This document shows, one piece after another, positions 57,718 through 62,533 of a DNA stretch of 64,000 nt. The translations under genes were made by a program, and so were the position numbers. The number at the start of each line of letters is the position of its first letter. Position 1 is the stretch's first letter. The stretch comes from Escherichia coli (lineage in GTDB: Bacteria > Pseudomonadota > Gammaproteobacteria > Enterobacterales > Enterobacteriaceae): the NCBI RefSeq assembly GCF_003334255.1, contig NZ_QOWU01000001.1; one strand, 5' to 3'. The notes beneath the pieces were generated by a model that was not told the origin of the DNA, searched no databases, and saw only the letters and a list, made by a program, of their open reading frames with translations.

Positions 57718-60315
57718 TTAAACCGCAGTCTGGAAAATCACCCCATCGGCTTTCTCGGTGTACTGAGAAAGCTGGTTGAAGTTCAGATAACGGTAAGTAT
57801 CAACGGCTGTTTTATCTACCTGCGCCACGTAGGTCTGGTACTCTTCCGGCGTCGGCAGTTTGCCAATCAGCGCCGCAACAGCCGCCAGTTCCGCAGAAGC
57901 CAGGAAGACATTCGCGCCAGTACCCAGACGGTTCGGGAAGTTACGGGTAGAGGTGGAAACCACCGTTGCACCGTCCGCCACACGCGCCTGGTTACCCATA
58001 CACAGGGAACAGCCAGGGATCTCGATACGCGCACCACTCTTACCGAAGACGCTGTAGTAGCCTTCTTCGGTCAACTGTGCGGCGTCCATACGGGTTGGCG
58101 GTGCCACCCACAGGCGGGTCGGCAACTGACCTTTATGCGCATCCAGCAGTTTACCCGCAGCACGGAAGTGACCGATGTTGGTCATGCAGGAACCGATAAA
58201 CACTTCGTCGATCTTCTCACCCTGTACCGCAGACAGCGGACGCGCGTCATCCGGGTCGTTCGGAGCACACAGGATTGGCTCTTTAATATCCGCCAGATCG
58301 ATGTCGATCACTGCCGCGTATTCCGCATCTGCATCGGCTTCCAGCAGCTCAGGATTCGCCAGCCATTTTTCCATGCCCTGAATACGACGTTCCAGGGTAC
58401 GACGATCGCCGTAACCTTCCGCGATCATCCACTTCAGCAGGACGATGTTAGAGTTCAGGTATTCGATGATCGGTTCTTTGTTCAGCTTGATGGTACAACC
58501 AGCGGCAGAACGCTCGGCGGACGCATCGGTTAGCTCAAAGGCCTGCTCAACTTTCAGATCCGGCAGACCTTCAATTTCCAGGATGCGGCCAGAGAAGATG
58601 TTTTTCTTGCCTTTCTTCTCAACGGTCAGCAGACCTTGTTTGATCGCATACAGCGGAATAGCGTGTACCAGATCGCGCAGGGTGATGCCCGGCTGCATTT
58701 TGCCTTTGAAGCGCACCAGAACGGATTCCGGCATATCAAGCGGCATTACGCCAGTTGCGGCAGCAAACGCCACCAGACCAGAACCCGCCGGGAAAGAGAT
58801 ACCGATCGGGAAACGGGTATGGGAGTCACCACCGGTACCGACGGTATCCGGCAGCAGCATACGGTTCAGCCAGGAGTGAATGACGCCGTCACCCGGACGC
58901 AGCGACACACCGCCACGGTTCATAATGAAGTCCGGCAGCGTGTGGTGCGTGTTCACGTCAACTGGCTTCGGATACGCCGCGGTGTGGCAGAAAGACTGCA
59001 TCACCAGGTCAGCCGAGAAGCCCAGGCACGCCAGGTCTTTCAGTTCATCACGGGTCATCGGGCCGGTGGTGTCCTGGGAACCTACAGAAGTCATTTTCGG
59101 TTCACAGTACGCGCCCGGACGAATGCCTTTCACGCCACAGGCACGGCCTACCATTTTTTGCGCCAGCGAGAAGCCGCGATCGCTCTCAGCGACATCTTTC
59201 GCCTGACGGAACACATCACTGTGCGGCAGACCAAGTGCTTCACGCGCTTTGGTGGTCAGGCCACGCCCGATAATCAGCGGAATACGGCCACCAGCACGCA
59301 CTTCATCAATCAGCACGTCGGTTTTCAGTTCGAAGGTCGCCAGCAGTTCGCCGGTTTCGTGGTTACGCACTTCACCTTTGTACGGGTAAACGTCAATCAC
59401 GTCGCCCATGTTCAGGTTAGAGACGTCGACTTCGATTGGCAGTGCACCCGCGTCTTCCATCGTGTTAAAGAAGATGGGTGCAATTTTACCGCCGAGGCAC
59501 AAACCACCGCCGCGTTTGTTCGGCACATGTGGAATATCATCGCCCATAAACCACAGAACGGAGTTAGTGGCGGATTTACGCGAAGAACCCGTACCCACAA
59601 CGTCACCGACGTACGCCAGCGGGAAACCTTTCTGTTGCAGAGCTTCGATTTGCTTGATCGGACCAACAACACCAGGCTGGTCTGGCTCAATACCTTCACG
59701 GGCGTTTTTCAGCATCGCCAGCGCGTGCAGTGGGATATCCGGGCGTGACCACGCATCCGGTGCCGGAGAAAGGTCATCGGTGTTAGTTTCGCCAGTGACT
59801 TTGAAGACAGTAACGGTCAGTTTTTCAGCCAGCGCCGGGCGATTCAGGAACCATTCGGCATCCGCCCAGGACTGCATAACCTGCTTCGCATATTCGTTGC
59901 CTGCTTTCGCTTTCTCTTCTACGTCATAGAAGTTATCGAACATCAGCAGCGTGTGAGAAAGTGCTTTGGCAGCAATAGGTGCCAGTTTGGCATCATCCAG
60001 CGCGTCGATCAGCGGATGAATGTTGTAACCACCCTGCATGGTGCCCAGCAGTTCGATGGCTTTTTCCGGAGTCAGCAGAGGGGATTTGGCTTCGCCTTTC
60101 GCGATAGCAGCCAGGAAGCCTGCTTTGACATAGGCGGCTTCATCGACGCCTGGGGGAACACGGTTGGTTAACAGATCTAACAGGAATTCTTCTTCGCCCG
60201 CGGGCGGGTTTTTCAGCAGCTCTACAAGTGCGGCCATTTGGTTTGCATCCAGGGGTTTGGGCGCAATCCCCTCAGCGGCACGCTCAGCTACGTGCTTACG
60301 GTATTCTTCTAGCAC
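57718..60315 (-). CDS. acnB: Aconitate hydratase B (bifunctional aconitase / 2-methylisocitrate dehydratase)
   Basis: ORF-track entry 57718..60468 contains (V)[48 protein letters not shown]...; trimmed to a GTG start giving 865 aa. Confidence 0.95.
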
Positions 60316-60669
60316 GACGGTTCTCCTCGCTCTCATTGTCATAGTGCGGCAGGCGATTCTCTTCACGCTCCTGTGAGACAGCAGTTTGTAGGGTAAATGC
60401 CCAGTACCGCAACGGGCAGAATAGCAGGATTTTGACGAGGTGTTAATCTGTTTACAAAAAAGCAACATAAAAAAGTGGCTGAATCGTTAAGGATGGTCTA
60501 GAGATTGTTTCCCTCCGTAAAAACTTCGTTAATTCGCATGGTGATAATCACCTTTCTCAACGAATCCCAAGATTAGTCAAAATTTAAACTACCGCCTCTT
60601 TATACTCGGATTCACAGCACCTGCGGGTGGCAGTTCGCCGACCATTGCGATTTCCTTGAGATCCGAATT

Positions 60670-62523
60670 ATGAAAATGACTTTGCCGTTTAAACCCCATG
60701 TGCTGGCGCTAATTTGCAGTGCCGGGCTTTGTGCCGCCTCTACCGGGCTATATATAAAAAGCCGCACAGTGGAAGCGCCTGTGGAACCGCAATCGACACA
60801 ACTGGCTGTGTCTGACGCTGCCGCGGTTACGTTTCCTGCAACGGTTTCCGCACCTCCCGTAACACCCGCCGTCGTCAAATCCGCATTCAGCACTGCACAA
60901 ATAGATCAATGGGTCGCGCCCGTCGCGCTGTATCCCGACGCCCTACTTTCGCAGGTGCTGATGGCATCAACCTATCCGACAAACGTTGCTCAAGCAGTGC
61001 AATGGTCGCACGATAATCCACTTAAACAAGGCGATGCTGCTATTCAGGCGGTATCTGACCAGCCGTGGGACGCCAGCGTTAAATCACTGGTGGCCTTTCC
61101 ACAATTGATGGCATTGATGGGCGAAAACCCGCAATGGGTGCAAAACCTGGGCGATGCTTTTCTGGCCCAGCCGCAGGACGTGATGGACTCGGTACAGCGA
61201 TTGCGGCAACTGGCGCAACAAACCGGCTCGCTGAAGTCATCAACCGAACAGAAAGTTATTACCACAACGAAGAAAGCTGTACCGGTAAAACAGACAGTCA
61301 CGGCACCCGTCATACCATCCAATACAGTTTTAACTGCCAACCCCGTCATTACAGAGCCGGCAACAACCGTCATTTCCATTGAGCCCGCCAATCCTGATGT
61401 GGTCTATATTCCCAACTACAACCCAACCGTGGTTTACGGGAACTGGGCCAATACTGCGTATCCGCCGGTTTATCTGCCACCACCAGCCGGAGAACCGTTT
61501 GTTGACAGCTTTGTACGCGGATTCGGCTATAGCATGGGCGTTGCTACCACGTACGCACTATTCAGCAGCATCGACTGGGACGACGACGATCATGACCATC
61601 ATCATCATGACAATGATGATTATCATCACCACGATGGCGGTCATCGTGACGGTAATGGCTGGCAACACAACGGCGACAACATCAATATCGACGTCAACAA
61701 TTTCAACCGTATCACCGGTGAGCATCTTACTGATAAGAATATGGCATGGCGGCACAATCCAAACTACCGTAATGGTGTGCCCTATCATGATCAGGATATG
61801 GCAAAGCGGTTTCATCAAACCGATGTCAACGGCGGAATGAGCGCCACGCAATTACCTGCCCCAACGCGCGACAGCCAGCGTCAGGCGGCAGCAAATCAGT
61901 TTCAGCAACGAACACACGCCGCACCAGTCATTACACGAGATACCCAACGTCAGGCAGCGGCACAGCGGTTTAATGAAGCTGAACACTATGGGAGCTATGA
62001 CGACTTCCACGACTTCAGCCGTCGCCAACCACTGACCCAGCAACAAAAGGACGCCGCTCGTCAGCGTTATCAGTCCGCCTCGCCTGAGCAGCGCCAGGCA
62101 GTTCGCGAGAGAATGCAGACTAACCCGAAGATCCAGCAGCGAAGAGAGGCAGCGCGTGAGCGCATTCAGTCCGCCTCGCCTGAGCAGCGCCAGGCGGTTC
62201 GCGAGAAAATGCAGACTAACCCGCAGAACCAGCAGCGAAGAGACGCAGCGCGTGAGCGTATTCAGTCCGCATCACCAGAGCAGCGCCAGGTGTTTAAGGA
62301 AAAAGTACAGCAGCGCCCACTGAATCAACAGCAACGTGATAACGCCCGCCAGCGTGTTCAATCGGCATCACCTGAACAACGTCAGGTTTTTCGGGAGAAA
62401 GTTCAGGAGAGCCGCCCACAACGTCTAAACGACAGTAACCATACTGTCAGGCTGAATAACGAGCAACGGTCAGCAGTATGCGAACGTCTCTCTGAACGTG
62501 GAGCAAGAAGACTGGAAAGGTAA
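60670..62523 (+). CDS. yacH: Secreted repeat-containing protein YacH (function unknown)
   Basis: 617-aa ORF with signal peptide MKMTLPFKPHVLALICSAGLCAAS, a His/Asp-rich segment and C-terminal tandem ~29-aa repeats (...SASPEQRQAVRE[K/R]MQTNP...). Confidence 0.85.
   Translation: MKMTLPFKPHVLALICSAGLCAASTGLYIKSRTVEAPVEPQSTQLAVSDAAAVTFPATVSAPPVTPAVVKSAFSTAQIDQWVAPVALYPDALLSQVLMASTYPTNVAQAVQWSHDNPLKQGDAAIQAVSDQPWDASVKSLVAFPQLMALMGENPQWVQNLGDAFLAQPQDVMDSVQRLRQLAQQTGSLKSSTEQKVITTTKKAVPVKQTVTAPVIPSNTVLTANPVITEPATTVISIEPANPDVVYIPNYNPTVVYGNWANTAYPPVYLPPPAGEPFVDSFVRGFGYSMGVATTYALFSSIDWDDDDHDHHHHDNDDYHHHDGGHRDGNGWQHNGDNINIDVNNFNRITGEHLTDKNMAWRHNPNYRNGVPYHDQDMAKRFHQTDVNGGMSATQLPAPTRDSQRQAAANQFQQRTHAAPVITRDTQRQAAAQRFNEAEHYGSYDDFHDFSRRQPLTQQQKDAARQRYQSASPEQRQAVRERMQTNPKIQQRREAARERIQSASPEQRQAVREKMQTNPQNQQRRDAARERIQSASPEQRQVFKEKVQQRPLNQQQRDNARQRVQSASPEQRQVFREKVQESRPQRLNDSNHTVRLNNEQRSAVCERLSERGARRLER
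62050..62405 (+). repeat. Tandem ~87-bp coding repeats (about 4 copies) inside yacH
   Basis: Near-identical consecutive units containing CAGTCCGCCTCGCCTGAGCAGCGCCAGGC[A/G]GTTCGCGAGA[G/A]AATGCAGACTAACCCG; the first two copies are nearly identical at the DNA level. Confidence 0.6.
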
Positions 62524-62533
62524 ATTGCAGACG

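Follow-up and report, generated by a model that had tools for sequence, protein, structure and literature searches.

Is the repetitive C-terminal half of YacH a variable module, and what kind of protein carries it? The yacH gene occupies 60670..62523 (+ strand) of the window, by which is meant the whole 64,000-nucleotide stretch of an Escherichia coli contig that was analysed. RefSeq annotation of E. coli lists the gene as yacH or as a DUF3300 domain-containing protein. Its identification as YacH in an earlier, sequence-only reading is confirmed by the open reading frame of 617 aa plus stop and by a match to Pfam DUF3300 (PF11737) at E=1.5e-78. This match covers aa 75–333 (60892..61668, +) and model positions 2–227 of 227, which places the protein in the family. 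The gene is flanked by acnB on one side and lpdA on the other. A bidirectional terminator-like hairpin common to the convergent yacH and lpdA genes (62534..62565, assigned to neither strand) consists of an A-run, a GC hairpin and a T-run; it folds at -17 kcal/mol with a z-score of -2.1 and is missing from the output of a consensus terminator scan. Reports on expression describe yacH as CpxR-regulated, with a deletion mutant that survives protamine better (PMC9600279), as induced at its promoter by ampicillin (PMC8865558) and as down-regulated in a rob mutant (PMC7537768). The papers found to mention yacH give no localisation, structure or biochemistry, and no metal-binding or partner experiment. 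DUF3300 is seldom mentioned, and some papers place YacH in the outer membrane or outside the cell by prediction only.

The N-terminal half has the features of an exported family protein. The segment at 60670..60744 (+), approximately aa 1–25 (MKMTLPFKPH-VLALICSAGLCAAS), resembles a signal peptide, in keeping with the earlier reading of YacH as secreted: its Kyte–Doolittle hydropathy (19-residue window) peaks at 1.91 at aa 11, it contains a small-x-small motif (AAS/AAA/AVA), and the segment with this site is kept across 12 enterobacterial orthologues. This putative signal peptide would be cleaved and would direct export of YacH. The helical core of the domain (aa 70–199) is modelled confidently and has no neighbour in the PDB. 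A Gly/Ser/Thr-rich hydrophobic segment, FVRGFGYSMGVATTYALFS, found family-wide and predicted to be helical, lies at 61507..61563 (+; aa 280–298). The motifs NGDNINIDVNNFN and WRHNPNYRNGVPY (61657..61785, +; aa 330–372) are conserved among enterobacterial orthologues and can still be made out in Cupriavidus and Paraburkholderia (DVNINVN, WQHNPANRGNVPY); aa 360–379 are modelled at pLDDT 78–84.

Between the Gly-rich helix and these motifs lies the first of two low-complexity features. The His/Asp tract DDDDHDHHHHDNDDYHHHDGGH occupies 61579..61644 (+; aa 304–325), close to the approximate position 61570..61640 first given for a metal-binding-like tract, and comprises 22 residues, among them 9 Asp and 9 His; runs of GAY/CAY codons encode it. 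Strains do not all have the same tract length: alleles differ by -13, -8, -5, -2, +2, +4, +7, +8 and +14 residues, giving tracts of about 9–36 residues. This variation was absent from the predictions of the sequence-only reading. A D/H-rich tract of differing sequence is present in all enterobacterial orthologues examined. A PDB search with the region brings up only His-tags and, from ZnuA and CbiX, their His-rich parts, none at a significant E-value; the likeness is one of composition, not homology.

The second feature is an array of four tandem repeats at 62050..62433 (+), with the consensus [DE]AAR[EQ]RIQSASPEQRQAVREKMQTNPQNQQRR. The repeats had been proposed to measure 87 bp (29 aa). Four copies in register are indeed present, at 62050–62145, 62146–62241, 62242–62337 and 62338–62433, with SASPEQRQ starting at 62074, 62170, 62266 and 62362, but they recur every 96 nt (32 aa). 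This period is the one reported by Tandem Repeats Finder (92% matches, score 379), and a second repeat search likewise finds 4 copies at 96-nt spacing. Self-comparison, the check proposed for tandem periodicity, yields a peak at lag 96 (identity 0.626, against at most 0.393 at any lag among 1000 codon-shuffled sequences), whereas lag 87 is at background (0.326). The first two copies, described as nearly identical, agree at 85 of 96 nt and 26 of 32 aa, so that the similarity is real and its wording slightly too strong; across the array the direct repeats are ~65–90% identical. Each 32-aa unit comprises two related 16-aa halves, and the array carries a net charge of +13 over 128 aa. A unit is predicted as two helices broken at SASP and TNP, a helix-turn-helix picture that is weak because the repeats are modelled at a pLDDT of 50–60 only. 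The array ends in a degenerate 29-aa fifth copy that includes the C-terminus (62434..62520, +; SNHTVRLNNEQRSAVCERLSERGARRLER, containing NNEQRSAVCERL). Its Cys604 occurs in the K-12-type allele only, and orthologues share the terminal [LS]xEQRSAxRE motif. Two TRDxQRQAAAxxF motifs farther upstream (61864..61980, +; aa 399 and 422), also conserved in orthologues, are related to the repeat motif; Cupriavidus has the counterpart SRDAARDRAAQSFQGRT.

Copy number varies between strains, as had been anticipated, and the refuting case named beforehand, an invariant number, does not apply. Population data come from two systematic samples of 60 genomes each, rank-spaced among the 5,417 complete E. coli genomes in RefSeq. 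In sample 1, 33, 25 and 1 genomes carry four, three and two copies, respectively, and one further gene is disrupted; in sample 2 the corresponding counts are ~33, 26 and 1. Overall frequencies are ~55% for four copies, ~42% for three and ~2% for two, in a design that is not a population sample and with copy number for partial alignments inferred from representative loci. The split between 4 and 3 copies may do no more than reflect phylogroup. The single disruption in sample 1 (1/60 genomes) is annotated as caused by an RHS element; yacH is otherwise kept intact in that sample. A search for protein homologues adds rarer alleles, namely a 5-copy form present in the protein database, a 45-aa duplication, a 17-aa duplication and a DDDDYHH expansion. 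When twelve alleles are compared residue by residue, the differences are exact 32-aa units, and alleles of 2, 3, 4 and 5 copies are thus related by whole steps. Since these are complete genomes and the steps are exactly 96 nt, the length classes are unlikely to be assembly artefacts.

The alleles also retain traces of how they arose. Hybrid units, one joining the start of unit 1 to the end of unit 2 (L001) and another combining units 1 and 3 (L003), mark recombination joints. Locus L003, with 2 copies and a 21-residue His/Asp tract, differs from L006, with 4 copies and an 8-residue tract, at only 1 of 900 upstream nucleotides, and 2-copy alleles occur in two unrelated haplotypes. Near-identical haplotypes differ in both repeats and tract, and the changes are therefore recent and recurrent. 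The indels seen measure 6, 12, 15, 21, 24, 39, 42, 51, 96, 135 and 192 nt, all multiples of three. The locus is thus a coding variable-number tandem repeat (VNTR), with head-to-tail copies at 96-nt spacing and isolates differing by whole units; the shift of frame or promoter spacing that characterizes a phase-variable contingency locus is not seen, all indels being in frame. YacH length variation is ordinary repeat polymorphism.

The phylogenetic distribution of these features is narrow. A search of 1.84 billion representatives with the C-terminal 228 aa retrieves no more than 25 proteins, and comparison of the C-terminal region with PDB chains, NCBIfam and PADLOC yields nothing significant. 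A contig scan reaches 11 loci only because its peptide patterns are E. coli-specific. Enterobacterial orthologues retain the D/H tract and the Q/R tail with differing repeat periods. Distant DUF3300 homologues, reached by tblastn against plasmids and chromids, instead combine an acidic patch, DW(D)n, with a basic tail rich in Arg and Gly. No comparable poly-His run occurs in those examined, Rhodobacter (L027) having only a short DDDDDHWH. Each DUF3300 protein examined has its domain closing with the Gly-rich hydrophobic helix, behind which stand, in order, the acidic patch, a D-x-N-I-N-V-N motif and a long low-complexity tail. In all family members examined this tail is strongly basic, R/G- or R/Q-rich, and ends in RR. 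Judged from these comparisons, the poly-His tract and Q/R-rich repeats are confined to Enterobacteriaceae, and only Escherichia has the 32-aa unit. Escherichia differs in gene context as well. DUF3300 genes normally lie directly upstream of a DUF2950 (PF11453) gene (PMC4653623), and a downstream DUF2950 gene is present at L015–L025 and L027–L029, including Kluyvera, Klebsiella grimontii, Enterobacter sp. and the distant homologues. Escherichia, by contrast, is without it: no DUF2950 gene is found in the window, in E. coli L013 or in E. albertii L014, so that the gene pair is absent there, blastn finds no DUF2950 match in 5,426 E. coli genomes, and the yacH–lpdA spacer holds no DUF2950 remnant. 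The partner has been lost in Escherichia.

The explanation that we favour, and regard as reasonably probable, is that YacH is a Sec-exported DUF3300 envelope protein in which both features are lineage-specific low-complexity modules of a flexible, charged tail, gaining and losing units in frame. In Enterobacteriaceae the acidic patch would have grown into the His/Asp tract while the basic tail turned Gln/Arg-rich; in Escherichia the tail would have been built by duplicating a 96-nt unit whose product is a pair of short helices with S-P-E-Q and T-N-P as N-caps. Because both modules are repetitive DNA (96-nt direct repeats and GAY/CAY runs), whole units can be gained or lost by replication slippage or unequal recombination. 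Change is always in frame and therefore yields YacH proteins with 2–5 repeats and a His/Asp tract of about 9–36 residues. The resulting tail would be a flexible appendage of opposite charges: divalent metal ions or protons could be ligands of the His/Asp patch, and anionic envelope material or unfolded clients those of the cationic helical array. In that case the number of repeats would determine how long and how charged the tail is and would not turn expression on or off. The length variation is most likely near-neutral, neutrality being assumed here.

On which side of the inner membrane such a tail lies depends on the Gly-rich helix. In distant homologues this segment is transmembrane-like (Kyte–Doolittle, 19 residues: 2.15 in Cupriavidus, 1.89 in Paraburkholderia, 1.69 in Ensifer and 1.58 in Rhodobacter), and the tail could accordingly be cytoplasmic, with other binding partners. 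YacH would then be a bitopic inner-membrane protein with a cleaved signal peptide, a periplasmic DUF3300 core, a membrane-spanning Gly-rich helix and a cytoplasmic His/Asp tract and repeat array that bind anionic phospholipid, nucleic acid or polyphosphate. The strongly basic tails found across the family, more usual on the cytoplasmic side, agree with this arrangement, which we nevertheless consider unlikely. The helix scores below 0.9 in E. coli (<0.9–1.2 for E. coli and Klebsiella), the ~20 residues after it are strongly acidic and without Lys or Arg, contrary to the positive-inside rule, and overproduced YacH served as a non-DNA-damaging control in one screen. A periplasmic tail is favoured because similar [ST]PEQR repeats sit in proteins that have a signal peptide only. 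The polymorphism itself might instead suggest a contingency locus, at which repeat number is selected to change a surface epitope in antigenic or phage-receptor variation. Copy number and His-tract length do change recurrently within near-identical haplotypes, and the outer-membrane or extracellular listing in some papers, although prediction only, would fit. Yet each event is in frame and hence without on/off switching, just 2–5 copies in two dominant classes are seen, surface exposure is unsupported, and models of anti-phage defence give no match. Long (96 nt), diverged units moreover lead one to expect mutation at a lower rate than in true contingency loci, and selection of this kind is very improbable.

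A functional alternative concerns the array as a Spy/CpxP/ZraP-like (LTXXQ-type) module. Each SPEQRQ..RE.MQ unit would form a helix start, the His/Asp tract would correspond to the metal-sensing His-rich ends of ZraP, and the whole would act as a holdase under Cpx control, its capacity scaling with the number of repeats. The few distant matches of the C-terminal region are signal-peptide proteins built of [LM][ST]PEQRxxMRERMQQ repeats; one of these has a Pfam LTXXQ hit at 4e-5, and two have DUF3106 hits at 1e-3 or better. Profile–profile alignment of these proteins to the YacH tail reaches 96–98% probability, with reversed and column-shuffled controls at E >0.1, but this hhalign score is circular because the comparison set was picked as the best YacH matches. 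CpxR regulation (PMC9600279) would also fit. YacH itself and the C-terminal regions of 9 orthologues, however, show no match to Pfam LTXXQ (PF07813) at E up to 10; the best independent E-values for DUF3106 (PF11304), 0.062 in E. coli and 0.0094 in one orthologue, are below significance; and Spy, CpxP and ZraP are absent from PDB matches at E up to 10 with either a sequence or a profile query. The repeats are poor in hydrophobic residues, and since S/T-P-E-Q is a generic helix N-cap, convergence is likely. An LTXXQ-type chaperone or sensor is thus doubtful. Still less probable is a combined scheme in which DUF3300 proteins form a widespread, structurally unassigned class of envelope proteins that normally act with a secreted DUF2950 partner. 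Escherichia YacH, having lost this partner, would have rebuilt its tail as an LTXXQ-like capped-helix array beside a His/Asp metal site; it would be a periplasmic holdase or binder of polyanions that responds to Cpx and is gated by metal or pH, and the number of repeats would set its capacity.

Taken on its own the finding is small: it adds a coding tandem-repeat polymorphism, along with another in the His/Asp tract, to one gene. The repeat locus could be used as a typing marker, and its variation accounts for differences in YacH length that might be taken for errors of assembly. Starting points for DUF3300 function are offered by the lost DUF2950 partner, the succession of acidic patch and basic tail, the core without a PDB neighbour and the likeness to secreted [ST]PEQR-repeat proteins. 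Natural alleles with 2 to 5 repeats are ready reagents for the effect of tail length on the reported protamine and envelope-stress phenotypes.

Several known systems invite comparison. Like the coding VNTRs used in E. coli MLVA, for example ms11, whose unit is also 96 bp, the yacH repeat is in frame, long in unit and strain-variable in copy number; it differs from them in being another locus, with only 2–5 copies seen. Identity with published MLVA loci was considered and rejected, none of the ms06–ms32 and CVN001–CVN017/CCR001 primers mapping in the window. His-rich metal-binding loops or tails are found in ZnuA (loop) and CbiX (tail), and further in SlyD, HypB and ZinT. The YacH tract is like those of ZnuA and CbiX in composition and in lying in a region without confident predicted structure, but its high Asp content and length polymorphism are atypical of such loops. 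With the LTXXQ proteins CpxP, Spy and ZraP and with DUF3106, YacH has in common repeated [ST]PEQ(R/Q)Q..(M/V)RE.(M/V)Q helix starts, a likely periplasmic location, basic character and reported Cpx regulation; unlike these families, its array is joined to a DUF3300 domain and shows 16- and 32-aa tandem periodicity. There is also resemblance to the DUF3300 homologues of Beta- and Alphaproteobacteria, which share with YacH the putative signal peptide, the helical core, the Gly-rich helix, the acidic DW(D)n patch, the DxNINVN motif and a basic low-complexity tail.

In YacH, an envelope protein that is known but uncharacterised, the tandem repeats and the His/Asp tract are ordinary low-complexity modules, prone to slippage, within the lineage-specific tail. 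The yacH gene (60670..62523, plus strand; an ORF call of 617 aa) is flanked by acnB (57718..60468, minus strand, ORF call) and lpdA (62594..63991, minus strand). K-12-type genomes contain 100% identical DNA, annotated as yacH or as encoding a DUF3300 domain-containing protein. The DUF3300 match spans aa 75-333 (Pfam, E=1.5e-78), and no other Pfam family is matched at E up to 10. The mechanical acnB ORF encodes 916 aa, about 51 codons more at the 5' end than the annotated 865-aa AcnB (RefSeq, 2598-nt CDS); this extension is an artefact of ORF calling. The yacH-lpdA spacer measures 70 bp in the window versus 242 bp in three compared loci, L004 (2429..2669), L005 (2453..2693) and L030. These loci are from B2-type strains, by alignment pattern including Nissle 1917, and the added DNA carries a REP-like sequence (GCCGGATGCGGCGTAAACGCCTTATCCGACCTACAA, opposite strand).

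Published data on yacH concern expression and deletion phenotypes, and no function for YacH was found in this literature. The gene is regulated by CpxR, its mRNA is lowered by protamine, and a deletion mutant survives protamine better (PMC9600279). Ampicillin induces the promoter (PMC8865558), a cathelicidin-derived peptide raises the mRNA (PMC6737244), and a rob mutant shows lower yacH expression (PMC7537768). Deletion of yacH also gives a higher yield of recombinant protein (PMC7376861).

The sequence-only reading had proposed about four tandem repeats of 29 aa (87 bp). The repeats are real; the period is 96 nt, not 87. The motif SASPEQRQ starts at 62074, 62170, 62266 and 62362, a spacing of exactly 96 nt. 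Tandem Repeats Finder reports period 96 (92% matches, score 379), and a separate repeat search returned four 96-nt copies at the same spacing. Compared with itself, 62014..62523 has an identity of 0.626 at lag 96 and of 0.326 at lag 87; the maximum over all lags in a codon-shuffle control (n=1000) was 0.393. The four units occupy aa 461-492, 493-524, 525-556 and 557-588 (62050..62433, plus strand), and a fifth, degenerate copy makes up the final 29 residues of the protein. Between units 1 and 2, 85 of 96 nt are identical. Each 32-aa unit can be split into two 16-aa halves that are related to each other, AARxRxQSASPEQRQ and AVRExMQTNPxxQQRR, and the motif TRDxQRQAAA occurs twice more upstream of the array (aa 399 and 422). 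Modelling of the full-length protein from 12 sequences gave a poor result (pLDDT 41.9), in which each repeat is predicted as two helices with breaks at SASP and TNP. The terminal degenerate repeat of the K-12-type allele contains Cys604 (TGC, 62479..62481), the only cysteine besides two in the N-terminal signal-like segment; all other alleles compared have Arg at this position.

Copy number varies between strains, as had been predicted. Of the complete E. coli genomes (n=5,426), 5,417 were matched by a megablast query of 61500..62560, and copies were counted in a rank-spaced sample of 60 matched genomes. The full span of four copies was present in 33; 25 were one unit shorter or fell in allele classes checked as three-copy, one was two units shorter, and one had yacH cut by an RHS element. 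A second sample, drawn with a different query, gave four copies in 33, three in about 26 and two in one. Aligned residue by residue, the alleles differ by exact 32-aa blocks. The junction unit left in shortened alleles is a hybrid of both flanking units, the outcome expected of unequal recombination or slippage between repeats. The protein database adds a five-copy allele (648 aa), a 17-aa duplication allele and P0001 (662 aa, on 19 contigs), in which 45 aa upstream of the 32-aa array are duplicated as tandem AAPVITRDTQRQAAAQRFNEAEHYGSYDDFHDFSRRQPLTQQQKD; larger out-of-register duplications thus also happen in this region. Length changes in yacH are recent and recurrent. A locus with two repeats and a 21-residue tract (L003) and another with four repeats and an 8-residue tract (L006) show one difference in their first 900 nt, and two-copy alleles are found in two unrelated haplotypes. 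All indels observed are multiples of 3 nt, and annotated disruption was seen in only one of the 60 genomes of the first sample. In E. coli IH5 (L010, 1069..2514) an RHS element truncates yacH within the first repeat; the annotation calls the gene a partial pseudogene and places RHS dsORF-h1 beside it. The yacH locus is not among published E. coli MLVA markers, though the ms11 unit is likewise 96 bp.

The His/Asp tract, DDDDHDHHHHDNDDYHHHDGGH (aa 304-325; 61579..61644, plus strand), lies near the position first assigned to it. Across strains and the protein database its length differs by -13, -8, -5, -2, +2, +4, +7, +8 and +14 residues. One extra DDDDYHH unit accounts for the +7 allele and two for the +14 allele. 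Metal or ligand binding is a plausible but putative activity of YacH.

Weak distant matches of the tail are signal-peptide proteins built of [LM][ST]PEQRxxMRERMQQ repeats, of which one fits Pfam LTXXQ at 4e-5 and two fit DUF3106 at E up to 1e-3. Profiles of the YacH tail and of these proteins align with 96-98% probability, in a comparison set picked by similarity to YacH. Reversed and column-shuffled controls gave E above 0.1, so the resemblance is at motif level and not mere composition. S/T-P-E-Q is a generic helix cap, which limits the weight of the match. YacH itself does not match the LTXXQ model, and its E-value for DUF3106 is no better than 0.06 (Pfam); sequence searches of the PDB returned no Spy, CpxP or ZraP chain. 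For these reasons, YacH is not assigned to either family. Since similar repeats occur in proteins with a signal peptide only, the analysis favours a periplasmic tail. A bitopic YacH with a cytoplasmic tail is less likely. The Gly-rich helix before the tract is transmembrane-like in distant homologues (hydropathy 1.5-2.15) but falls below 0.9 in E. coli, and the segment right after it is strongly acidic.

A search with the C-terminal 228 aa against 1.84 billion cluster representatives retrieved just 25 proteins (E up to 1e-3), mostly Escherichia fragments. Orthologues were compared from E. albertii, Kluyvera, Klebsiella grimontii, an Enterobacter species and other Enterobacteriaceae. They share a signal-like N-terminus, the DUF3300 domain and a Q/R-rich tail, and keep the motifs NGDNININVNNFN and WQHNPxYRN as well as a D/H-rich tract of variable sequence. 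Their tail repeats have a period of about 17-18 aa, which marks the 32-aa unit as an Escherichia construction. A DUF2950 gene lies directly 3' of the DUF3300 gene in non-Escherichia enterobacterial loci (L015-L023, for example L017 5645..6439; Kluyvera, Klebsiella grimontii, Enterobacter sp. and other Enterobacteriaceae) and next to the distant homologues of Beta- and Alphaproteobacteria, in agreement with PMC4653623. This partner has been lost in Escherichia. It is absent after yacH in E. coli and E. albertii, the yacH-lpdA spacer (62524..62593) holds no DUF2950 remnant, and the Kluyvera gene has no blastn-level match in the 5,426 E. coli genomes.

Distant homologues, reached by tblastn against plasmids and chromids, come from Cupriavidus, Paraburkholderia, Ralstonia, Rhodobacter, Ensifer, Sinorhizobium and Rhizobium. 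In the GC-rich, unannotated Cupriavidus campinensis chromid record (L024, 2917..4152) the homologue's frame stays open for 877 codons without a stop, and its true C-terminus could not be located; further on, at 4367..5122, lies a DUF2950 homologue. Unlike E. coli YacH, the distant proteins have no comparable poly-His tract, Rhodobacter having only a short DDDDDHWH. Their layout is that of YacH: a signal peptide (in YacH a signal-like N-terminus), DUF3300, a Gly-rich hydrophobic helix, an acidic DW(D)n patch, a DxNINVN motif and then a basic tail, which in these proteins is Arg/Gly-rich and has RR at its end. Along with the DUF2950 loss and natural length alleles for experiments, this family-wide passage from acidic patch to basic tail is among the most useful by-products of the analysis.
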